Below, in pieces: positions 8,794-34,234 of a stretch of DNA of 34,234 bases. Below the pieces are notes generated by a model. The model was not told the DNA's origin. It did no database searches and was given only the letters and a program-made list of their open reading frames with translations. A program made the translations under genes and the position numbers. Numbering within the stretch: position 1 is the stretch's first letter; every line of letters begins with the position of its first letter. This stretch comes from a virus (taxonomy: Duplodnaviria > Heunggongvirae > Uroviricota > Caudoviricetes), in IMG/VR virus record IMGVR_UViG_2609459856_000009. One strand, written 5' to 3'.

Positions 8794-9491
8794 AAAACAT
8801 CGCCGCACAGATGGTTAACTTTGACCGTGAGCAGATGCGCCGGATCGCCAACAACATGCCGGAACAGTACGACGAAAAGCCGCAGGTACAGCAGGTAGCG
8901 CAGATCATCAACGGTGTGTTCAGCCAGTTACTGGCAACTTTCCCGGCGAGTCTGGCTAACCGTGACCAGAACGAACTGAACGAAATCCGCCGCCAGTGGG
9001 TTCTGGCTTTCCGGGAAAACGGGATCACCACAATGGAACAGGTTAACGCAGGAATGCGCGTAGCCCGTCGGCAGAATCGACCATTTCTGCCATCACCCGG
9101 GCAGTTTGTTGCATGGTGCCGGGAAGAAGCATCCGTTATCGCCGGACTGCCAAACGTCAGCGAGCTGGTTGATATGGTTTACGAGTATTGCCGGAAGCGA
9201 GGCCTGTATCCGGATGCGGAGTCTTATCCGTGGAAATCAAACGCGCACTACTGGCTGGTTACCAACCTGTATCAGAACATGCGGGCCAATGCGCTTACTG
9301 ATGCGGAATTACGCCGTAAGGCCGCAGATGAGCTTGTCCATATGACTGCGAGAATTAACCGTGGTGAGGCGATCCCTGAACCAGTAAAACAACTTCCTGT
9401 CATGGGCGGTAGACCTCTAAATCGTGCACAGGCTCTGGCGAAGATCGCAGAAATCAAAGCTAAGTTCGGACTGAAAGGAGCAAGCGTATGA
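8790..9491 (+). CDS. P: Replication protein P (DnaB helicase loader)
   Basis: 233-aa product essentially identical to lambda P (MKNIAAQMVNFDREQMRRIANNMPEQYDEKPQVQQVAQIINGVF...). Confidence 0.95.
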   Translation: MKNIAAQMVNFDREQMRRIANNMPEQYDEKPQVQQVAQIINGVFSQLLATFPASLANRDQNELNEIRRQWVLAFRENGITTMEQVNAGMRVARRQNRPFLPSPGQFVAWCREEASVIAGLPNVSELVDMVYEYCRKRGLYPDAESYPWKSNAHYWLVTNLYQNMRANALTDAELRRKAADELVHMTARINRGEAIPEPVKQLPVMGGRPLNRAQALAKIAEIKAKFGLKGASV

Positions 9492-14917: not shown

Positions 14918-15276
14918 ATACCTACAGCATCACATTACCCTGGCCTCCGAGCAATAATCGCTATTACCGCCATAATCGCGGGCGCACGCACATCAGCGCA
15001 GAGGGGCAAGCATACCGCGATAACGTCGCCCGAATCATCAAAGGCTCCATGCTGGATATCGGCCTGGCTATGCCAGTGAAAATCCGCATTGAGTGCCACA
15101 TGCCGGATCGCCGTCGCCGTGACCTGGATAATCTGCAAAAAGCCGCTTTTGACGCACTTACTAAAGCAGGTTTCTGGCTGGATGATGCGCAGGTTGTTGA
15201 TTACCGCGTTGTGAAGATGCCGATCGTTAAAGGCGGGAAGCTGGAGCTGACCATTACAGAACTGGAGGGCGAATGA
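14914..15276 (+). CDS. rusA: Holliday junction resolvase RusA
   Basis: 120-aa product matching RusA ([36 protein letters not shown]...[13 protein letters not shown]). Confidence 0.92.
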
Positions 15277-15413
15277 CGTTTGAATCTTATATCACAGAAC
15301 ACCTCCGCCTTCGCTGGATGCGCCTGCGGTTGTACCGGTTTTCCGGTTCTGTCGTGACTGATTACCGAATACTGAAAAATTACGCCAAAACACTGAAAGG
15401 AGCGGCCGCATGA
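15273..15413 (+). CDS. ylcG: Small protein (YlcG-like), 46 aa
   Basis: Below the ORF-track cutoff. ATG overlaps the rusA stop and its own stop overlaps the Q start (ATGA), so it is translationally coupled. Confidence 0.55.
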
Positions 15414-19525: not shown

Positions 19526-19724
19526 GAGGTTGCCCCGTATTCAGTGTCGCTGATTTGTATTGTCTGAAGTTGTTTTTACGTTAAGTTGATGCGGATCAAT
19601 TAATACGATACCTGCGTCATAATTGATTATTTGACGTGGTTTGATGGCGTAGATGCACGTTGTGACATGTAGATGATAATTATTATCATTTTGCGGGTCC
19701 TTTCCGGCGATCCGACAGGTTACG

Positions 19725-19736
19725 GGGCGGCGACCT
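19725..19736. other. cosN cohesive-end site (lambda-type 12-nt GGGCGGCGACCT)
   Basis: Exact match to the lambda left-end 12-mer GGGCGGCGACCT, with lambda right-end-like sequence upstream and lambda cosB-like leader downstream up to Nu1. Confidence 0.85.
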
Positions 19737-19913
19737 CGCGGTTTTTCACTATTTATGAAAATTTTCCGGTTTAAGGCGTTTCCGTTCTTCTTCGCCGTAA
19801 CCTAATGTTTTTATTTAAAACACCCCCTGAAAAGAAAGGAAACGACAGGTGCTGAAAACGGGCTTTTTGGCCTCTGTCGTTTCCTTTCTCTGTTTTTGTC
19901 CGTGGAATGAACA

Positions 19914-20433
19914 ATGGAAGTCAACAAAAAGCAGCTGGCTGACATTTTCGGCGCGAGTATCCGTACCATTCAGAACTGGCAGGAGCAGGGAATGCCCGTT
20001 CTGCGGGGTGGTGGCAAGGGTAATGAGGTGCTTTATGACTCTGCCGCCGCCATAAAATGGTATGCCGAAAGGGATGCTGAAATTGAGAACGAAAAGCTGC
20101 GCCGGGAAGTTGAAGAACTGCGGCAGGCCAGCGAGACAGATCTCCAGCCAGGGACTATTGAGTACGAACGCCATCGACTTACGCGTGCGCAGGCCGACGC
20201 ACAGGAGCTGAAAAATGCCAGAGACTCCGCTGAAGTGGTGGAAACTGCATTCTGTACTTTCGTGCTGTCGCGGATCGCAGGTGAAATTGCCAGTATTCTC
20301 GACGGGATCCCCCTGTCGGTGCAGCGGCGTTTTCCGGAACTGGAAAACCGACATGTTGATTTCCTGAAACGGGATATCATCAAAGCCATGAACAAAGCAG
20401 CCGCGCTGGATGAACTGATACCGGGGTTGCTGA

Positions 20434-20459
<26 letters not shown>
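19914..20459 (+). CDS. Nu1: Terminase small subunit Nu1
   Basis: 181-aa product near-identical to lambda Nu1 (MEVNKKQLADIFGASIRTIQNWQEQGMPV...). Confidence 0.95.
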
Positions 20460-24140
<3,681 letters not shown>

Positions 24141-24160
<20 letters not shown>

Positions 24161-25460
24161 TCTCCCGCATATTGCCAGTATGGCCTTTAATGAGCCGCTG
24201 ATGCTTGAACCCGCCTATGCGCGGGTTTTCTTTTGTGCGCTTGCAGGCCAGCTTGGGATCAGCCGCCTGACGGATGCGGTATCCGGCGACAGCCTGACTG
24301 CCGGAGAGGCACCCGCGGCGCTGGCGTTATCCGTTGATGATGACGGACCACGACAGGCCCGCAGTTATCAGGTCATGAACGGCATCGCCGTGCTGCCGGT
24401 GTCCGGCACGCTGGTCAGCCGGACGCGAGCGCTGCAGCCGTATTCGGGGATGACCGGTTACAACGGCATTATCGCCCGTCTGCAACAGGCTGCCAGCGAC
24501 CCGATGGTGGACGGCATTCTGCTCGATATGGATACGCCAGGCGGGATGGTGGCAGGGGCATTTGACTGCGCTGACATCATCGCCCGTGTGCGTGACATAA
24601 AACCGGTATGGGCGCTGGCCAACGACATGAACTGCAGTGCAGGTCAGCTGCTTGCCAGTGCCGCCTCCCGGCGTCTGGTCACGCAGACCGCCCGGACAGG
24701 CTCCATCGGCGTCATGATGGCTCACAGTAATTACGGTGCTGCGCTGGAGAAACAGGGGGTGGAAATCACGCTGATTTACAGCGGCAGCCATAAGGTGGAT
24801 GGCAACCCCTACAGCCATCTTCCGGATGACGTCCGGGAGACACTGCAGTCCCGGATGGATGCAACCCGCCGGATGTTTGCGCAGAAGGTGTCGGCATATA
24901 CCGGCCTGTCCGTGCAGGCTGTTCTGGATACCGAGGCTGCAGTGTACAGCGGTCAGGAGGCCATTGATGCCGGACTGGCTGATGAACTTGTTAACAGCAC
25001 CGATGCGATCACCGTCATGCGTGATGCACTGGATGCACGTAAATCCCGTCTCTCAGGAGGGCGAATGACCAAAGAGACCCAATCAACAACTGTTTCAGCC
25101 ACTGCTTCGCAGGCTGACGTTACTGACGTGATGCCAGCGACGGAGGGCGAAAACGCCAGCGCGGTGCAGCCGGACGTGAACGCGCAGATCACCGCTGCGG
25201 TTGCGGCAGAAAACAGCCGCATTATGGGGATCCTCAACTGTGAGGAGGCTCACGGACGCGAAGAACAGGCCCGCGTGCTGGCTGAACCCCCCGGTATGAC
25301 CGTGGAAACGGCCCGCCGCATTCTGGCCGCAGCACCACAGAGTGCACAGGCGCGCAGTGATACTGCGCTGGATCGTCTGATGCAGGGGGCACCGGCACCG
25401 CTGGCTGCAGGTAACCCGGCATCTGATGCCGTTAACGATTTGCTGAACACACCAGTGTAA
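24141..25460 (+). CDS. C: Head protease / minor capsid protein C
   Basis: GTG start at 24141 overlapping the B end by 20 nt; 1320 nt, the lambda C length; product from MTAELRNLPHIASMAFNEPLMLEPAYARVFF... The 477-aa track ORF is this gene read through from inside B. Confidence 0.9.
24855..25460 (+). CDS. Nu3: Scaffolding protein Nu3 (in-frame internal start within C)
   Basis: ATG at 24855, in frame with C and 714 nt from its start, the same offset as lambda Nu3. Confidence 0.75.
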   Translation: MDATRRMFAQKVSAYTGLSVQAVLDTEAAVYSGQEAIDAGLADELVNSTDAITVMRDALDARKSRLSGGRMTKETQSTTVSATASQADVTDVMPATEGENASAVQPDVNAQITAAVAAENSRIMGILNCEEAHGREEQARVLAEPPGMTVETARRILAAAPQSAQARSDTALDRLMQGAPAPLAAGNPASDAVNDLLNTPV

Positions 25461-25469
25461 GGGATGTTT

Positions 25470-25802
25470 ATGACGAGCAAAGAAACCTTTACCCATTACC
25501 AGCCGCTGGGCAACAGTGACCCGGCTCATACCGCAACCGCGCCCGGCGGATTGAGTGCGAAAGCGCCTGCAATGACCCCGCTGATGCTGGACACCTCCAC
25601 CCGTAAGCTGGTTGCGTGGGATGGCACCACCGACGGTGCTGCCGTTGGCATTCTTGCAGTTGCTGCTGACCAGACCAGCACCACACTGACGTTCTACAAG
25701 TCCGGCACGTTCCGTTATGAGGATGTGCTCTGGCCGGAGGCTGCCAGCGACGAGACGAAAAAACGGACCGCGTTTGCCGGAACGGCAATCAGCATCGTTT
25801 AA
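25470..25802 (+). CDS. D: Head decoration protein D
   Basis: 110-aa product from [27 protein letters not shown]... near-identical to lambda gpD. Confidence 0.93.
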
Positions 25803-25858
25803 CTTTACCCTTCATCACTAAAGGCCGCCTGTGCGGCTTTTTTTACGGGATTTTTTTT

Positions 25859-26134
25859 ATGTCGATGTACACAACCGCCCAGCTGCTGGCGGCAAATGAG
25901 CAGAAATTTAAGTTTGATCCGCTGTTTCTGCGTCTCTTTTTCCGTGAGAGCTATCCCTTCACCACGGAGAAAGTCTATCTCTCACAAATTCCGGGACTGG
26001 TAAACATGGCGCTGTACGTTTCGCCGATTGTTTCCGGTGAGGTTATCCGTTCCCGTGGCGGATCCACCTCTGAATTTACGCCGGGATATGTCAAACCCAA
26101 GCACTTAGCATGGCTTTCTGAGGCTTTCGTGTAG
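25859..26134 (+). pseudogene. E: Major capsid protein E, truncated: only codons 1-82 are lambda-like, then 9 junction-derived codons and a stop
   Basis: Product matches lambda gpE through ...SEFTPGYVKPKH (ending at nt 26104), then diverges (LAWLSEAFV, stop). Lambda E is about 341 aa; the remainder is replaced by the integrase-bearing element. Confidence 0.9.
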
Positions 26135-26266
26135 TTGCTGGTTTTTACACTTAATCTTTTGATAATAAAGAATAAGTTTATCTGGCGCTTTCACTGAATT
26201 TTCCTCGTTATCTGTGTGTTGCAATCATCTCTGTATTGCAGCTTGTATTGCTTTTTGGGGCTAAAA

Positions 26267-27502
26267 ATGGCTGGCGAGAACAAACTGAGCGACAAAGCGC
26301 TTAAAGGATATCTGGGGAAACCCAGAGAAAAGCAGATCACCATTGCTGATGGAAAGGGGCTTTCTATTCGTGTGAGTACTAAAGGGGCTGTGAGCTTTGT
26401 TTTCTTCTACAGGTTAGCAGGTGGCCGGGATGCTCCGGTCTGGCTAACGTTGGGTAAATATCCTGATATGTCACTCAAACAGGCAAGGGAAAAGCGCGAC
26501 GAGTGCCGTGGTTGGTTGGCTGACAAACGTGATCCGCGTATCCAGATTAAGATTCAGGCTGAAGAACGCTTAAAGCCGGTCACAGTGGAGGATGCACTAA
26601 ATTACTGGTATGAAAATTACTGTAAGGTGCGTCGTAAAACTCATGCTGTAACGCTTGGCAGATTTCGAAAGCATATCTTTCCCTATATCGGTCATTTGCC
26701 CGTAAATGACACTCACCTATATGAATGGCTGGACTGTTTTGACCGAATTAAACGTAATGCACCAGTTATGGCGGCGTATGTTTTTTCTGACACTAAATTA
26801 GCTCTTCGTTTTTGTCGGGTACGCCAGTACGCGACGTGTGATGCTTTAAAGGATTTGCGCATGAGTGATGTGGGGCAGATTGCAGGTAAGCGGGATCGGG
26901 TTCTGGATGAAGCCGAACTGGGCCAGCTCTGGAAGGCAATTTTTGTCGAGCCTGATTTAAAACTAATGTCTGAATACACGCGAAAAATGTTTGTGCTTTG
27001 TACAGTATTTGGATGTCGAATGAGTGAAGCCCGATTATCTGAATGGAGCGAATGGGATCTCGAAAGTTGGGTTTGGACTGTACCAAAAGATCACTCAAAA
27101 ACTGGTGTTGAAATCGTCAGACCAGTACCTGAAATTCTACGACAGTGGGTAACGGATGTTCACGAAGAGACAAAACATACTGGTTATGTGCTGGGAAGTC
27201 TGCGAATTAGAGAAAGCGTAAGCAAGATTGGGGGGAAAATCGGTAAACGTTTGGGCCATGAAAAACAATGGTCACTACACGACCTTAGAAGAACGCTATC
27301 TACTCATCTAAGTGATCTCGGTGTTGAATTTTATGTAGTAGAACAACTGTTAGGCCATGCGCTACCTGGCGTGGCAGGTGTTTACAACCGGAGTAAGTTT
27401 ATGGCTAAAAAACTGGATGCTCTGGAACTCTGGACTACATATCTCAATAGCATCGCAGGTGCTGATTCAAAAGTGACAATCCTCAAACAAAAGGCTGGTT
27501 AA
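26267..27502 (+). CDS. int: P4-family tyrosine integrase of the inserted element
   Basis: About 411-aa product from MAGENKLSDKALKGYLGKP... with an N-terminal arm-binding-like region and C-terminal catalytic motifs (HDLRRTLSTHL, LLGHALPGVAGVYNRS). Begins about 160 bp after the E breakpoint. Confidence 0.85.
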   Translation: MAGENKLSDKALKGYLGKPREKQITIADGKGLSIRVSTKGAVSFVFFYRLAGGRDAPVWLTLGKYPDMSLKQAREKRDECRGWLADKRDPRIQIKIQAEERLKPVTVEDALNYWYENYCKVRRKTHAVTLGRFRKHIFPYIGHLPVNDTHLYEWLDCFDRIKRNAPVMAAYVFSDTKLALRFCRVRQYATCDALKDLRMSDVGQIAGKRDRVLDEAELGQLWKAIFVEPDLKLMSEYTRKMFVLCTVFGCRMSEARLSEWSEWDLESWVWTVPKDHSKTGVEIVRPVPEILRQWVTDVHEETKHTGYVLGSLRIRESVSKIGGKIGKRLGHEKQWSLHDLRRTLSTHLSDLGVEFYVVEQLLGHALPGVAGVYNRSKFMAKKLDALELWTTYLNSIAGADSKVTILKQKAG

Positions 27503-27503
27503 C

Positions 27504-27731
27504 ATGAAAAAAATGGCAATTGTTGATAAAAAGGGTCTGGAGTACATTCCTAACATCGATCGTATGATCCGTGAGAAAGAATGTCGGGAGCTAACCACTC
27601 TTGCAAACAGCACACGCTGGAAGCTGGAGAAGGAAGGAAAATTTCCTAAGCGGATCAAGATTGGTTCCACTGCTGTTGCATATCGTCTTTCAGAAGTGCA
27701 GGCATGGATTCGAGGTGAGTGGGTAGTTTAA
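27504..27731 (+). CDS. alpA: AlpA-family transcriptional regulator / excisionase-like protein
   Basis: 75-aa product with an AlpA-type HTH (ELTTLANSTRWKLEKEGKFPKRIKIGSTAVAYRLSEVQAWI), immediately downstream of the integrase. Confidence 0.8.
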   Translation: MKKMAIVDKKGLEYIPNIDRMIREKECRELTTLANSTRWKLEKEGKFPKRIKIGSTAVAYRLSEVQAWIRGEWVV

Positions 27732-27756
27732 ATTATCTCAGAATAAAATATTATGA

Positions 27757-27792
27757 ATTACTGATTTGAGAATTTGTACTCAAATCAGTAAT
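27757..27792. terminator. Bidirectional hairpin between convergent alpA and the membrane-protein gene
   Basis: Perfect 14-bp inverted repeat ATTACTGATTTGAG / CTCAAATCAGTAAT with an 8-nt loop, flanked by T-rich sequence on both strands. Confidence 0.6.
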
Positions 27793-27800
27793 AACATTCT

Positions 27801-28337
27801 TTATAAGAGATTAAATCCAAATAAAGAGTAATCATATACCGGGGTGCATTGCATCCCACTGAATATGCTGATGTTTTTTTCTGTTTCTATCCTTTTTTCA
27901 ATAAGTTGTTGTATATTTTTACAGTACAATTTGTGTGTGATGTTATTATCGTAAGCCTGATATAGCAACGTCAATGTTGACGCTAGGAAACATACAGATA
28001 AAATTAAAATAATATATGCAGTTTTTTTATTTTTTGTCCATGATCTATTTGTTTGTGAAATATAAAGAATTCTGAGGTGGATAATGGTGAGAGACAATAG
28101 CAGGCCACTCAATAAAATAAGTATTGGGTTTGCGTATTTTATTAATGGTTGAGAGCAAAAAACTATTATAGCTCCTGTGACTGCGTATGAGAAAAAGGAG
28201 TGATTAAACTTCTTACTCCTTCTCTCAAGTATTTTAATTTCATCTTGCGTGGGGGTTTTAGATGCCTCTAATATAAGTTTATTGAATTTTTCTGTTATCT
28301 TGTTTTTTGTGTTTGTGGCTATTTTTTTTAGATTCAT
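27801..28337 (-). CDS. Hypothetical AT-rich integral membrane protein (three predicted transmembrane helices), element cargo
   Basis: 178-aa ORF with K/N/I-rich composition, three hydrophobic segments (FFSYAVTGAIIVFCSQPLI; ILILLSGLLLSLTIIHLRILYI; AYIILILSVCFLASTLTLLY) and soluble termini. Strongly AT-rich compared with neighbouring element genes. Confidence 0.6.
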   Translation of the reverse strand: MNLKKIATNTKNKITEKFNKLILEASKTPTQDEIKILERRSKKFNHSFFSYAVTGAIIVFCSQPLIKYANPILILLSGLLLSLTIIHLRILYISQTNRSWTKNKKTAYIILILSVCFLASTLTLLYQAYDNNITHKLYCKNIQQLIEKRIETEKNISIFSGMQCTPVYDYSLFGFNLL

Positions 28338-28687
28338 AGCATTCTAACTCCCTTAACTTATTTATTACTTTCTCTTTATGATAAGAGAGGGGAATGACTT
28401 GGTAAAGTGATTTGTCATTAATAATGATAATCCTTGCGATAAATATTTCTGCAAGTTATTTATCTGTTTGTTGCTATCTTGTTAAGCGTTGGGTGTGGTT
28501 TATGTTTGGAGTGACTTTATTTAATCGTGATTTTATGGATTTATATTTATATCCTGTAAGATAAGCGCATGTTAGTTCAGGAGTAGTGTCAGATAAAATT
28601 ATTCGGAGTAGAACTACCTTTTCTGTTTATTGCCAGTATTTACATAGCAATGCGCCGTAGTTACTCACATCACGGCGCTGATACTAA

Positions 28688-28990
28688 TTATTCAGATTCT
28701 TTGGCTTTACGCCGCTGGAGTTCTTCACGAGCGACGGCTACGAGTTGCCCGATTTCCTCCGCTACCTTGATGCCGATTTGTTCGACCTTAGCTAAGGCAT
28801 CCAGTGAAGACACGAGGGGATTTTCTCCGCTTCCTTCTGCCTGGCGGCGGGCGATCTCACCGCGCATGGCGGTTACTATGAATCCGGCGTTGCTTTCGCC
28901 GTCCAGTTTTACGGATTCCATGCCCTCCATAACATCGTGGGGAACCCTGATCGTTGTCATTTGCGATTTTGCATTTTTGTATACAGACAT
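28688..28990 (-). CDS. Putative ribbon-helix-helix (Arc/CopG-like) DNA-binding regulator
   Basis: 100-aa ORF; the N-terminus (MTTIRVPHDVMEGMESVKLDGESNAGFIVTAMRGEI) has a beta-strand-then-helix pattern typical of RHH repressors; divergent from the operator-repeat array. Confidence 0.5.
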   Translation of the reverse strand: MSVYKNAKSQMTTIRVPHDVMEGMESVKLDGESNAGFIVTAMRGEIARRQAEGSGENPLVSSLDALAKVEQIGIKVAEEIGQLVAVAREELQRRKAKESE

Positions 28991-29010
28991 AGTTAATCAC
29001 CAATTTGTTA

Positions 29011-29111
29011 TGTGTATATCACTATACACAAAAGTGAGATATAAAAACACTTGCAATGTATATCACCACAATATAATGTATATCTCACATTATGGTCGCT
29101 ATGTATCTCAC
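29011..29111. promoter_or_regulatory. Operator-like repeat array in the divergent intergenic region of the element
   Basis: Perfect palindrome TGTGTATA-TCAC-TATACACA (29011-29030) plus further copies of TGTAT(AT)C(T)CAC at 29057-29066, 29077-29088 and 29102-29111, and an inverted copy TGAGATAT (29035-29042). Confidence 0.55.
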
Positions 29112-29198
29112 AATGATCGATTCATAAAAACGACGAAACCCGGCAGTGCGCGAACACTAACCGGGCTTCTAACCAAACCGTTAAACGAGGTAACGACT

Positions 29199-29489
29199 AT
29201 GGCTGGAACACAGCATACCCAAACTCACCCTAAATTTATATACATCTTTCTGGCGCTACATCGCGATCGCATAGCAGATGGAGCAACTACGGTACATGTA
29301 GCCGCTGACACGCTGTTTATTCAGAAATGTGAAAACAATTTCATCTGGCGTTTTATCGCCCTGAGTACGGCACAACCGCGCGTGATTACCATCGAGGCCA
29401 CCAGCGAACAGGAAGCCCGCCAGCAATCCCCAACTGGCTGCGTGATGATATTCGCCGCCCGTATTCGTCAGGAGGTGTGCCATGAATGA
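29199..29489 (+). CDS. Icd-like small protein (P4-type satellite family)
   Basis: 96-aa product from MAGTQHTQTHPKF... with segments (NFIWRFIALS, VITIEA, EARQQSPTGCVMIFAARI) resembling Icd-like proteins of P4-type elements as I recall them; ATG 29199 is in frame inside the 279-aa track ORF. Confidence 0.45.
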   Translation: MAGTQHTQTHPKFIYIFLALHRDRIADGATTVHVAADTLFIQKCENNFIWRFIALSTAQPRVITIEATSEQEARQQSPTGCVMIFAARIRQEVCHE

Positions 29490-29706
29490 TCTTTATTTTA
29501 AAGTGCTGACACATGCTGAAAACGCGCTCGTTTGTGGCAAAAATATGCGAGAAATCTTATCAACCTGGCTTGATGGGACAACAAATGCGGAACACGATGA
29601 ACGGGATGCTAATTTAGCTGGAGCGTTAATTACGTTACTTGATCCTGTCATCAAAGAGCTGGATGAAGCTATAAAAATACACGACCAGAGCTATACCGGA
29701 GAATAA
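29482..29706 (+). CDS. Hypothetical protein
   Basis: 74-aa ORF overlapping the upstream gene end by 8 nt; operon-like packing. Confidence 0.45.
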   Translation: MNDLYFKVLTHAENALVCGKNMREILSTWLDGTTNAEHDERDANLAGALITLLDPVIKELDEAIKIHDQSYTGE

Positions 29707-29708
29707 AA

Positions 29709-29996
29709 ATGAAAAATAAATTTTCTGGCTTTATTGCCAGCGGTCAAACTCATTCAAAAATCAGCCTTGGGGATATTTTCAAAGATAGCTATGGCTATCG
29801 AGTAAAGATTATTTCGGTTGATGATCGCCGTGTCTCTTATTTGCGTGATGGTTATGATTTTGAATGTGTTATGCCGCGTCAGCAGTTCGAAAGAGATTTC
29901 ATTCTGGTAAAAAATTGCAAGACAGATAATCAGAGGCGTTCCGCAGGCTATATCCGCAAAATTCGGGCAATGTTAGTTGCCGGAGGTAACAAATGA
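29709..29996 (+). CDS. Hypothetical protein
   Basis: 95-aa ORF starting 3 nt after the previous stop; its own stop overlaps the primase start. Confidence 0.45.
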   Translation: MKNKFSGFIASGQTHSKISLGDIFKDSYGYRVKIISVDDRRVSYLRDGYDFECVMPRQQFERDFILVKNCKTDNQRRSAGYIRKIRAMLVAGGNK

Positions 29997-31813
29997 AACG
30001 TGCTCCGAACTTAAAATACCAACCGCGCGACAAAATGACAGAAGTCATCATTTTTGCTGGCAGTGATGCCTGGAGCCATGCAAAAGAATGGAATGAATGG
30101 GCGGGTAAGCATATTGCAGCAGATGATACACCACCAGTCATTCTGGGTACGGAACAACTGGAAAACCTGGATGATATGCAAATTATCGATGAAGGCCGTC
30201 ATTATGTGCGTGTTTATCGTGCCGGAAAGATCGCAGAGAAAAATCTGACGAAGGTTGCGACATTACTTGCTATTGCAGGCGTAAAGGAAGCACGTTGTTA
30301 CCGTAGCTTTGTTGATCGAGAGCCTGAAGACTGGACTCCGCGCCTTGTCGGCCTAAAAGCTGAAGCGGAGCATGGGGAAAGTCTGGTGATTGAACTGCCA
30401 GTGAAGAAGGCAGAGCGCAAAAATGACGAGCGTGCTTCATCTTTGGCGTTGAATCAGATGGGGGCCAGCCAGCGCGGTGAAGTTCTCCTGGCACATTACG
30501 GCGGCGAACTGGCAATCAATGCCGACTCTGACACCGTTCATCATTACAACGGCGTTGTATGGGAGCCGGTTCAGGATAAAGAGTTACAGCGTGCTATGGC
30601 GCAGATTTTCATTGATGCGGAGATCAGCTATTCGCAGAACGCCATTAAATCGGCGGTAGATACCATGAAGTTAAGTTTGCCTGTAATGGGGAATACAGCC
30701 CGTAACCTGATTGGATTCAGTAACGGGGTATTTGATACCAGAACTGGTAATTTTCGGGAGCATAACAAAAACGACTGGTTGTTAATTGCCAGTGAATTAC
30801 CTTTCAGCCCACCAGCAGAGGGGGAAACGCTGGCAACACATGCGCCGAATTTCTGGAAGTGGTTGCGCCGTTCGGTGGCTGAGAATGACCGCAAGGCAGA
30901 TCGCGTACTGGCGGCATTATTCATGGTGCTGGCGAACCGGTACGACTGGCAGTTATTCATTGAGGTAACAGGGCCGGGGGGAAGTGGTAAAAGTGTGATG
31001 GCGGAGATTTGCACCATGCTGGCGGGTAAGGCTAATACAGTATCAGCAAGCATGAAGGCGCTGGAAGATGCAAGGGAACGTGCGTTAGTGGTTGGCTTTT
31101 CGCTGATTATCATGCCGGATATGACCCGCTACGCTGGTGATGGGGCAGGGATTAAGGCCATTACAGGCGGTGACAAGGTGGCAATTGACCCGAAACACAA
31201 AGCCCCCTATTCAACGCGTATTCCGGCAGTAGTGCTGGCGATTAACAATAACGCCATGTCATTCAGTGACCGCAGCGGGGGGATCTCACGTCGTCGGGTG
31301 ATATTCAATTTTTCGGAAGTTGTACCGGAGAACGAACGCGATTCGATGCTGGCGGAAAAAATAGAAGGTGAGCTGGCGGTAGTGATTCGCCATCTGCTTA
31401 CACGGTTTGCTGATCAGGACGAAGCCAGACGCCTGTTATATGAGCAGCAGAAATCTGAAGAAGCACTGGCGATAAAGCGAGAGGGGGATTCGCTGGTGGA
31501 CTTCTGCGGCTATCTCATGGCGTCGGTAATGTGTGATGGCCTGTTAGTGGGTAATGCTGAAATTGTGCCATTCAGCCCACGCAGGTATCTCTATCATGCC
31601 TATCTGGCTTATATGAGGGCACATGGGTTTGGTAAACCTGTAACACTGACGCGCTTCGGTAAAGATATGCCGGGGGCAATGGCGGAATATGGCAGGGAGT
31701 ATATGAAACGGAAAACGAAGCACGGTTTGCGTTCAAACGTGACACTGACGGAGGAATCAGAAGACTGGATGCCATCATGTGTATCGGTCACTAATGACGA
31801 TAGCAAAAATTAA
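29993..31813 (+). CDS. Replication primase-helicase (P4-alpha / D5-like C-terminal P-loop NTPase)
   Basis: 606-aa product with Walker A (EVTGPGGSGKS) and downstream helicase-like motifs; followed directly by an iteron array. Confidence 0.82.
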   Translation: MKRAPNLKYQPRDKMTEVIIFAGSDAWSHAKEWNEWAGKHIAADDTPPVILGTEQLENLDDMQIIDEGRHYVRVYRAGKIAEKNLTKVATLLAIAGVKEARCYRSFVDREPEDWTPRLVGLKAEAEHGESLVIELPVKKAERKNDERASSLALNQMGASQRGEVLLAHYGGELAINADSDTVHHYNGVVWEPVQDKELQRAMAQIFIDAEISYSQNAIKSAVDTMKLSLPVMGNTARNLIGFSNGVFDTRTGNFREHNKNDWLLIASELPFSPPAEGETLATHAPNFWKWLRRSVAENDRKADRVLAALFMVLANRYDWQLFIEVTGPGGSGKSVMAEICTMLAGKANTVSASMKALEDARERALVVGFSLIIMPDMTRYAGDGAGIKAITGGDKVAIDPKHKAPYSTRIPAVVLAINNNAMSFSDRSGGISRRRVIFNFSEVVPENERDSMLAEKIEGELAVVIRHLLTRFADQDEARRLLYEQQKSEEALAIKREGDSLVDFCGYLMASVMCDGLLVGNAEIVPFSPRRYLYHAYLAYMRAHGFGKPVTLTRFGKDMPGAMAEYGREYMKRKTKHGLRSNVTLTEESEDWMPSCVSVTNDDSKN

Positions 31814-31826
31814 ACTTATGGAATAA

Positions 31827-32056
31827 CTGTTCACCACTGTTCACCCTGTCATAAATATCTTTTATATCAGTATATTATAGGGTGAACAGTTATTTATGAA
31901 CTGTTCACCAAACTATTCACTGTTCACCTTTTTGATTGTTTATTGAGCTTCAAGGGTGAACAGTGGTGAACAGTTGGTGAATAGTTTTTGTGAAACTGTT
32001 CACCCATTAACATTATGAATTAAAAGAGAAAATATCAAAAGGTGAACAGGTGAAGG
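31827..32056. repeat. Iteron array, candidate origin of replication of the element
   Basis: About ten copies of the 9-mer CTGTTCACC or its complement GGTGAACAG in both orientations, several as tandem pairs, interspersed with AT-rich sequence, immediately downstream of the primase-helicase. Confidence 0.75.
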
Positions 32057-32100
32057 GTTAAAACGCAAAAATTTTAATTTACTGCTGTGAGATAAAGCCT

Positions 32101-32346
32101 ATGACAGCGAAGCACACAAAAAAATCACAATCGCACGCCCTTGATTTGACGGAACACTGGTTAAGGGTGTCGATAAAAATCATCGACCGCAACGCCGGGG
32201 AAGGATACGCGAAAGCACATCCCGAACTGATTAGCGCATTCATGACAACGGCGGCTGCAAACTTTGCCACTCTGACCGAACGGGAGATTGCTGAAGCGGA
32301 GGAAGTGACAACAATCAATATTAAGTCCGGAGAGCAGGCAGCATGA
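32101..32346 (+). CDS. Hypothetical protein
   Basis: 81-aa ORF whose stop overlaps the SSB-like gene start. Confidence 0.45.
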   Translation: MTAKHTKKSQSHALDLTEHWLRVSIKIIDRNAGEGYAKAHPELISAFMTTAAANFATLTEREIAEAEEVTTINIKSGEQAA

Positions 32347-32792
32347 CGGCGCAAATATCAGTTTACGGGCGGTTGGTGGACGACCCGCAGACAAAACAGA
32401 CCAGCAAGGGCACCCCCATGACGCTGGCGCGTATGGCGTTATCACTGCCCTGCAGTCAGTCGGATGACGGTCAGGCGACGATGTGGTTATCTGTCCTGGC
32501 GTTTGGCAGACAAGCCGACGCGCTGGCAAAGCATCACAAAGGCGAACTCCTGAGCGTGGCGGGTAATATGCAGGTGAGCCAGTGGACTGGACAGAACGGT
32601 GAAACGCGGCAGGGCTGGCAGGTTATCGCAGACAGCGTAATCAGTGCGCGAACGGTGCGACCGGGCGGCAAAAAAGGTCAACAGGGTCAGGCTACTGACG
32701 CACTGAACAGAGCAAAACAACAGGCAGATCAGCAAGGAAGCCATCCACCAGTGGGAGATAATGAACAATGGGGAGATGATATTCCGTTTTAA
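32343..32792 (+). CDS. ssb: Single-stranded DNA-binding protein (SSB-like, OB fold with acidic C-terminal tip)
   Basis: 149-aa product with SSB-like OB-fold segments, a Gly/Gln-rich tail and the hallmark C-terminus ...WGDDIPF. Confidence 0.8.
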   Translation: MTAQISVYGRLVDDPQTKQTSKGTPMTLARMALSLPCSQSDDGQATMWLSVLAFGRQADALAKHHKGELLSVAGNMQVSQWTGQNGETRQGWQVIADSVISARTVRPGGKKGQQGQATDALNRAKQQADQQGSHPPVGDNEQWGDDIPF

Positions 32793-32810
32793 ATATTGCC
32801 AATAAAAAAG

Positions 32811-32835
32811 GCCGGAAAAAAATAAATTTTCCGGC
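32811..32835. terminator. Hairpin or terminator after ssb
   Basis: GCCGGAAAA-aaataaa-TTTTCCGGC perfect 9-bp stem flanked by A/T runs. Confidence 0.5.
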
Positions 32836-33009
32836 ATGCTACATAAATCCCGACCAAAGGGAGTGAAGATATTAACACTAATTATCCGCGCTGAAGTTGT
32901 TATCCCAAAACTTTATACAACATTGCACTCGGTTGCATGTATTCGCATGACAAATATCGGTGATAGCATATATCCACAATTATTTTTAATGAATGCAAAG
33001 AGGATGCGT

Positions 33010-34234
<1,225 letters not shown>

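Follow-up and report, generated by a model that had tools for sequence, protein, structure and literature searches.

What is the function of a dense array of short repeats that stands directly after a putative primase-helicase gene, and to what kind of element does it belong? The question is raised by positions 31814–32100 of a viral DNA of 34,234 nucleotides, the whole of which is referred to here as the window. The original prediction, which was made from the letters alone, took the repeats for the replication origin of a satellite or island. To assess this reading, we compared the array, the gap that contains it and the gene that precedes it with characterised replicons and with related loci from other genomes.

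A non-coding gap filled with iterons

The gap extends from the stop codon of a 606-aa open reading frame (ORF), which ends at 31813, to an ATG at 32101, and it holds the entire putative origin. It had been described as a non-coding gap of 240 bp in AT-rich DNA. The AT-rich setting is borne out by a GC content of 33% overall and of 17–27% in three spacers, and the gap is indeed non-coding, but its length is 287 bp, with the array itself spanning 229 bp. The original prediction had also raised the possibility that the repeats fall inside an unrecognised coding sequence. This was checked, and the ORFs that overlap the gap are at most 29 aa long. No Rfam family reached its gathering score anywhere in the window, gap included, and a hidden coding sequence or RNA in the gap was rejected on these two grounds. 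The RefSeq records of near-identical genomes carry no annotation in the gap.

A search for sites of host replication factors found no DnaA box, IHF consensus or GATC in 31791–32110, and no 13-mer or Fis site in the gap. The absence of the first three fits a DnaA-independent initiator. It also separates the array from DnaA-dependent plasmid-type iteron origins of the RepA class, as does the nature of the presumed initiator, which is an SF3 helicase and not a Rep_3-type protein.

The 9-mer CTGTTCACC/GGTGAACAG occurs in nine exact copies within 31827–32049, five on the plus strand and four on the minus strand, and in one further copy with a single mismatch at 31976–31984 on the minus strand, which agrees with the predicted ten or so copies in both orientations. 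Tandem pairs separated by one nucleotide had likewise been predicted, and are found at 31827/31837 and 31955/31965 (10 bp from start to start); the copies at 31965/31976 are 11 bp apart. Such spacing of 10–11 bp between tandem sites corresponds to one helical turn. There is no exact copy outside the array, in the remaining ~33.9 kb of the 34.2-kb window. When one mismatch is allowed, the window contains 19 matches compared to 6.4 ± 2.3 in shuffled sequences, and none of 100 shuffles reached 19.

Because the base to its 5′ side varies among relatives, the 8-mer TGTTCACC was taken as the conserved core of the iteron. Counted at up to two mismatches, this core gives a total of 12 sites in the gap, of which nine are exact, one has one mismatch and two have two mismatches; the chance expectation for an exact TGTTCACC in 287 bp of the same composition is ~0.005. 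From left to right, the array begins with a tandem pair on the plus strand (sites 1–2, 31828–31835 and 31838–31845, 10 bp apart), followed by an AT-rich spacer of 35 bp and 20% GC (31846–31880), an inverted site on the minus strand (site 3, 31881–31888), and a plus-strand triplet (sites 4–6) that is exact at 31902–31909 and 31921–31928 and has two mismatches at 31914–31921 (TATTCACT). After a central spacer of 26 bp and 27% GC (31929–31954) comes a minus-strand triplet (sites 7–9), exact at 31955–31962 and 31965–31972 and with one mismatch at 31976–31983 (TATTCACC). An inverted single site on the plus strand (site 10, 31997–32004) is then followed by a right-hand AT-rich spacer of 36 bp and 17% GC (32005–32040) and by an abutting minus-strand pair (sites 11–12), exact at 32041–32048 and with two mismatches at 32049–32056 (CCTTCACC).

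The left and right AT-rich spacers are local minima of duplex stability, at −29 to −31 kcal/mol per 30-mer. Within the gap, the duplex is weakest in the left spacer, where it reaches −29.2 kcal/mol per 30-mer (window mean −40.2 ± 3.9); this spacer is a candidate unwinding element. The central spacer holds a dyad axis at ~31942.5, about which the 12 sites are symmetric to within 1.5 bp, with six sites in each half, a feature absent from the original prediction. Ungapped identity between the two arms is just 47%, so the symmetry resides in the sites and not in the whole sequence. With its sites in mirror symmetry, either single strand could fold as one long imperfect hairpin; the hairpin predicted for 31814–32070 has a folding energy of −50.7 kcal/mol (z = −8.6).

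The upstream gene encodes a P4 alpha-like helicase

The 606-aa protein is encoded on the plus strand at 29993–31813 and matches the Pfam families D5_N, DUF5906 and Pox_D5. Its domain order is an N-terminal Toprim-like module of ~125 aa, D5_N, an SF3 helicase and, at the C terminus, a winged-helix origin-binding domain. The Walker A motif GPGGSGKS occupies residues 327–334, and DUF5906 corresponds to the SF3 helicase P-loop. Over the helicase and DNA-binding domains, residues 149–596 are 50% identical to residues 323–771 of the P4 alpha protein, and the helicase motifs are invariant in this alignment. The winged-helix domain (codons 498–594, 31484–31774, plus strand) is a homologue of the P4 alpha domain in PDB entry 1KA8; in a phmmer search of the PDB, residues 498–594 matched residues 2–99 of 1ka8_A with E = 1.9e-24. 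The helicase core also matches the SaPI5 primase-helicase (PDB 7OLA, E = 2.6e-10).

The first ~148 residues have no match to P4 alpha. Whereas P4 alpha carries Zn_Ribbon_Prim (residues 30–66) and Toprim_3 (residues 210–299) domains, Pfam finds neither in the 606-aa protein, and residues 1–160 gave no NCBIfam match. The N-terminal domain of ~125 aa (29993–30370) has weak similarity to the Toprim-like fold and no zinc ribbon, which makes it a divergent Toprim-like module at best. The term primase-helicase, as used in the original prediction, is thus apt for the helicase, which is accompanied by a DNA-binding domain, but not for the primase, as the zinc ribbon and Toprim of P4 are absent. Primase activity of the protein is putative, and so is its database name, ‘DNA primase’.

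Both halves of the array resemble the P4 origin

A blastn search of the gap against phage records returned a match to the P4 feature ‘origin of DNA replication / ori type 1 repeat’. In the P4 record (NC_001609/X51522), six copies of TGTTCACC are annotated in ori (9310–9413) and five per 120-bp unit of crr. The latter, recorded as the ‘cis required region for replication’, immediately follows the alpha gene. Viewed in the same orientation as the initiator gene, P4 ori consists of a triplet, an inverted single site, an AT spacer of ~36 bp and a pair. The right half of the array agrees with P4 ori base for base at the sites: sites 7–9 are collinear with 9310–9338, site 10 with the repeat at 9353–9360, and sites 11–12 with 9396–9413, while the right-hand spacer is the counterpart of the P4 ori/crr AT spacer (gaattaaaagagaaaa...). 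In the left half, sites 1–2 align with the iteron pair of ori and crr, and sites 4–6 with the ori triplet. When the left half, the reverse-complemented right half, P4 ori and the two crr units are aligned five ways, all are collinear, which indicates that the array consists of two P4-ori-like units joined head to head. By this alignment, the putative origin is made up of two inverted units of ~115 bp, each with six TGTTCACC sites in the order pair, AT spacer, inverted single, triplet, and each is homologous to the P4 ori core.

Several further features are shared with P4. The site word is identical, it is used in both orientations, and tandem sites have the same spacing of 10–11 bp. The site cluster lies directly 3′ of the initiator gene, as crr does, and the 606-aa protein resembles P4 alpha in combining an SF3 helicase with a C-terminal winged-helix domain of the 1KA8 type. 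Unlike P4, however, the island has two units in one dyad-symmetric origin, whereas P4 has one ori and, ~4.5 kb away, a crr comprising two direct 120-bp repeats. Neither the window nor the complete island at the near-identical locus L085 has a second, crr-like cluster of TGTTCACC, and the P4 type II repeat (TTAAAGYMAY) has no match at up to one mismatch in the gap or its surroundings. Elsewhere, too, the element departs from P4 in being PICI-like, with no sid, psu or delta genes and with a lambdoid helper.

P4 alpha reportedly binds iterons of type I and forms a loop between ori and crr, in work attributed to Ziegelin et al. (1993) and to Yeo et al. (2002); the GenBank annotation of P4 and PMC2777425 are further sources for this account. 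Since P4 needs both a separate ori and crr, and the island has a single cluster, the P4 mechanism is not transferable unchanged. Judged by its sequence features (no primase domain in the initiator, no separate crr and no type II repeats), the array falls short of full membership in the P4 replicon type.

Related loci keep the layout and change the word

For a comparative analysis, we used 80 loci with relatives of the 606-aa protein, obtained from a scan of one genome per species. At nearly all of these, an over-represented 8-mer forming an iteron array is found within 450 bp 3′ of the stop codon, and this 8-mer is mostly TGTTCACC. Four loci from Pantoea and Ewingella have no array within 450 bp of the stop. 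In several lineages the word is a different one, yet the number, order, orientation and spacing of the sites are kept: we see TGTCTACC at L008, L013, L016 and L021, TCTCCACC at L018, TGTCCGCC at L020, TATACACC at L075, GGTATACA at L076 and TGTTCATA at L079. A word that is switched at all twelve positions on a fixed scaffold is what would be expected of sites that are read by one sequence-specific protein. These loci, together with L087, are candidate orthogonal initiator/origin pairs. Within 360 bp after the stop, and with L087 included, the 12-site scaffold is seen with at least seven words across Enterobacterales and a few other Gammaproteobacteria.

Selective retention of the sites is also seen where the word does not change. 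In 12 TGTTCACC-type origins from Escherichia, Klebsiella, Raoultella, Pluralibacter, Kluyvera, Citrobacter and Pectobacterium, site columns were 0.84 identical, compared to 0.60 for spacer columns (Mann-Whitney p=4e-9).

The match between word and DNA-binding domain is imperfect, as L074 and L075 have similar wings and different words. The word TGTCTACC is used both with a 5-residue wing insertion, in the four loci listed for it above, and without one, in the PICI EcCICFT073. The DNA-binding domains of L076 and L079 (last 105 residues) differ at five residues, and these proteins are paired with GGTATACA and TGTTCATA, respectively; this represents either a very economical specificity switch or the involvement of another determinant. 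Two of the five differences are at the wing tip (KNRGM in one, KTRGV in the other). A simple residue-to-base code leading from the wing or recognition helix to the word was rejected in view of the L076/L079 pair and the wing differences within the TGTCTACC group.

The array lies in an island within a helper prophage

Positions 25800–33848 of the window are 99.5% identical to E. coli NRG857c (NC_017634.1). The helper-embedded PICI 11capE was described in this strain by Mageeney et al. 2023 (PMC10111431). Upstream of the island, the window comprises the late region of a lambdoid prophage (19914–26134), with the terminase at 20434–22359 and the portal gene at 22559–24160. The helper's major capsid gene E is split by the island after ~80 codons. 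An N-terminal Phage_cap_E fragment at 25859–26134 adjoins the lambdoid terminase, portal, protease and decoration genes upstream, and the remainder of the gene resumes beyond the island in near-identical genomes. This split identifies the island as a helper-embedded PICI (HE-PICI) of the capE site group; it is co-oriented with the capsid gene that it interrupts.

The attL junction, at the end of the capsid E fragment (26134), and the integrase are 5.6 kb upstream of the array. The integrase (26216–27502) and an AlpA regulator (27504–27731), identified with Pfam, precede the initiator gene. On the other side of the gap, a small conserved gene of 81 aa (phrog_1231, 32101–32346, plus strand), which has the same position in EcCICFT073, is followed by an island-encoded SSB (32343–32792, plus strand; Pfam SSB 1e-15, TIGR00621 score above the cut-off) and by the island's own capsid gene, which is of the lambda-E type (Phage_cap_E; ORF 32836–33864, with the RefSeq start at about 33010). 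The replication module of the island (initiator, origin and SSB) is apparently complete and intact, which matters for how such satellites amplify and spread. A 451-bp origin segment (window 31700–32150) is present in 594 of 5,426 complete E. coli genomes. Rfam did not detect here any of the P4-like immunity RNAs (C4/IsrK) that some PICIs are reported to have.

An insertion sequence at ~33849 removes the last ~67 codons of the island capsid gene. An rve-family transposase ORF occupies 33857–34216 on the minus strand, and intact relatives run on past window position 33848. In one of these, L085, positions 15022–15281 hold 260 bp that duplicate the prophage cos region (window 19693–19952) at 92% identity. 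The prophage original lies just upstream of the small terminase gene, and the copy would fall ~600 bp past the end of the window, ~3 kb downstream of the array. This copy agrees with a published suggestion that the island is packaged by its helper's cos machinery.

Comparison with PICI and SaPI replication modules

A characterised counterpart of the array is found in EcCICFT073, the model Gram-negative PICI, which in the CFT073 genome corresponds to L087 22931–33655. Its Pri-Rep protein is 44% identical to the 606-aa protein over 598 aligned residues (E=1e-171), full length and including the N-terminal module. The 288-bp gap of EcCICFT073 has the same 12-site layout, namely pair, AT spacer, single and triplet in one half and triplet, single, spacer and pair in the other. 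The gene order is also alike (int, alpA, ..., DUF4222, pri-rep, gap, small ORF, ssb, capsid). In contrast, the site word is TGTCTACC in EcCICFT073 and TGTTCACC here, which means that the two islands differ in their specificity allele. Other differences are that the right-hand spacer is GC-rich in EcCICFT073 and AT-rich here, and that EcCICFT073 is chromosomal, whereas the present island is inside a prophage. Fillol-Salom et al. 2018 (PMC6092414) report that the rep-ori segment of EcCICFT073 maintains a temperature-sensitive plasmid and that maintenance is impaired by deletion of rep or ori; initiator-dependent replication of a rep-ori segment is demonstrated for EcCICFT073 only.

The same study places the origin of Gram-negative PICIs immediately 3′ of pri-rep, with two iteron sets around AT-rich DNA (PMC6092414), and we find this arrangement here. 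The gene context is likewise that of a PICI, with int, alpA, unidirectional genes, pri-rep, ori and late genes. SaPIs and Gram-positive PICIs also have an island helicase initiator, an origin immediately 3′ of its gene and iteron sets around AT-rich DNA, as outlined in PMC6092414. However, homology to these is distant and limited to the helicase core, and their site words and transcriptional organisation are different. On the basis of protein homology and site layout, the array belongs to the Gram-negative PICI Pri-Rep/ori class and would work like the P4 origin.

The island resembles 11capE both in the 99.5% identity and in the same insertion in a lambdoid major capsid gene E, and differs from it in that its own capsid gene is here interrupted by the insertion sequence. 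The iteron anatomy of 11capE is not described in the available text of Mageeney et al. 2023 (PMC10111431). The same paper gives an attP:attB ratio that stayed at ~1 in two of three inductions (PMC10111431), which suggests weak or no post-excision replication in those inductions.

Both the element and the presence and location of its origin have already been published, and the present finding is correct and of a known kind. In the available parts of the published descriptions, we did not find it stated that the word is exactly that of P4, that each half is homologous to the P4 ori core, or that there are at least seven specificity alleles. These points are refinements, and do not constitute a new kind of system. 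They do make the replication link between PICIs and P4 tighter than the ‘distant homology’ of the published account, in that the word is the same and the unit homologous.

Function of the array and alternative readings

Based on these comparisons, we consider it very likely that the array is the replication origin of an HE-PICI, essentially 11capE, that interrupts the major capsid gene of a lambda-like prophage. This is in keeping with the original prediction of a satellite or island origin, and three independent lines of evidence support it. The array is homologous to two characterised origins, P4 ori/crr and that of EcCICFT073; the product of the neighbouring gene has a domain closely homologous to the P4 alpha origin-binding domain of known structure; and relatives retain the layout, change the word at every site at once, and conserve sites better than spacers. 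By analogy with EcCICFT073, the island would replicate autonomously after excision, with uncertain strength.

As the array has the position of P4 crr, directly after an alpha-like gene, and as its right half resembles the crr units, it might instead be an auxiliary cis element of the crr kind. Bound by the same protein, it would then act as an enhancer, a looping site or a copy-control ‘handcuffing’ site, with initiation occurring elsewhere or being driven by helper O/P while the island is embedded. The passive replication of 11capE within the excised composite, with little replication after its own excision, could be read in this way (PMC10111431). However, the complete island has no second cluster of TGTTCACC to act as the true origin, and both halves align better with the six-site P4 ori core than with crr. 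In EcCICFT073, a single equivalent gap together with the rep gene is enough for plasmid maintenance (PMC6092414). We therefore regard an auxiliary role as improbable.

Less probable again is that the repeats are transcriptional operators and not a site of DNA synthesis, serving autoregulation of the initiator or control of the orf81-ssb-capsid genes. Winged-helix domains are commonly found in transcription regulators, and the array does lie between two co-oriented gene blocks; regulation could also be a second function of the same array. Against operators as the main role, we see no sigma-70-like promoter or intrinsic terminator in 31600–32400, which is weak negative evidence as it comes from a consensus scan only, and the 12-site dyad, AT-rich spacers and SF3 helicase match the origins of P4 and EcCICFT073. 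It is also the case that satellites carry cis packaging sites and that repeated words occur in att arms, and the P4 record annotates attP arm repeats. A packaging (cos/pac) or recombination (att) function for the array in the island is nevertheless scarcely credible, as the 260-bp cos copy of the island is found ~3 kb downstream of the array in L085, the integrase and attL junction are well upstream, and nothing else in the window resembles the gap at E≤0.1.

A possible mechanism and its implications

If the array is indeed the origin of the island, the P4-alpha-like SF3 helicase encoded by the upstream gene would bind the sites through its C-terminal winged-helix domain. The six sites of each half may seat one hexamer, and a head-to-head pair of hexamers could then melt the AT-rich spacers and unwind in both directions, with the exposed single strands being coated by the island SSB, which is encoded two genes downstream. 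As the zinc-ribbon and Toprim primase of P4 alpha is absent, priming may be provided by host DnaG or by the divergent N-terminal domain. By comparison with relatives, the origin would probably fire after AlpA-driven expression or after read-through from the helper late operon.

A more speculative reading, which we hold to be unlikely but worth stating, is that PICI and P4 satellites share one origin specificity, or else that the 6+6 geometry is a literal template for loading an SF3 double hexamer that has lost its own primase. The two kinds of satellite have different helpers, P2 for P4 and lambdoid phages for PICIs. Shared specificity is made possible by the identity of the word with the P4 type I iteron and by a DNA-binding domain that is 50% identical to that of P4 alpha. 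If it were true, P4 alpha or the alpha proteins of P4-like prophages could fire, titrate or block the array origin, and the 606-aa protein could do likewise at P4 origins. The conserved scaffold, with its seven or more words, also offers a ready-made set of orthogonal initiators and origins and a natural system in which to study changes of winged-helix specificity.

Further observations on the island proteins

The N-terminal module of the 606-aa protein (residues 1–125) contains an invariant TE..FAGSDAW motif and is common to E. coli proteins with at least three different helicase bodies. The occurrence of one module on several helicase bodies is an apparent case of domain shuffling. Elsewhere in the island, the computed ORF of 279 aa at window 28650–29489 is probably not one gene. 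Of this ORF, the RefSeq annotation takes in only the final ~96 codons, for an Icd-like cell-division inhibitor, and it has a YlcI/YnfO gene on the opposite strand at the equivalent of window 28688–28990.
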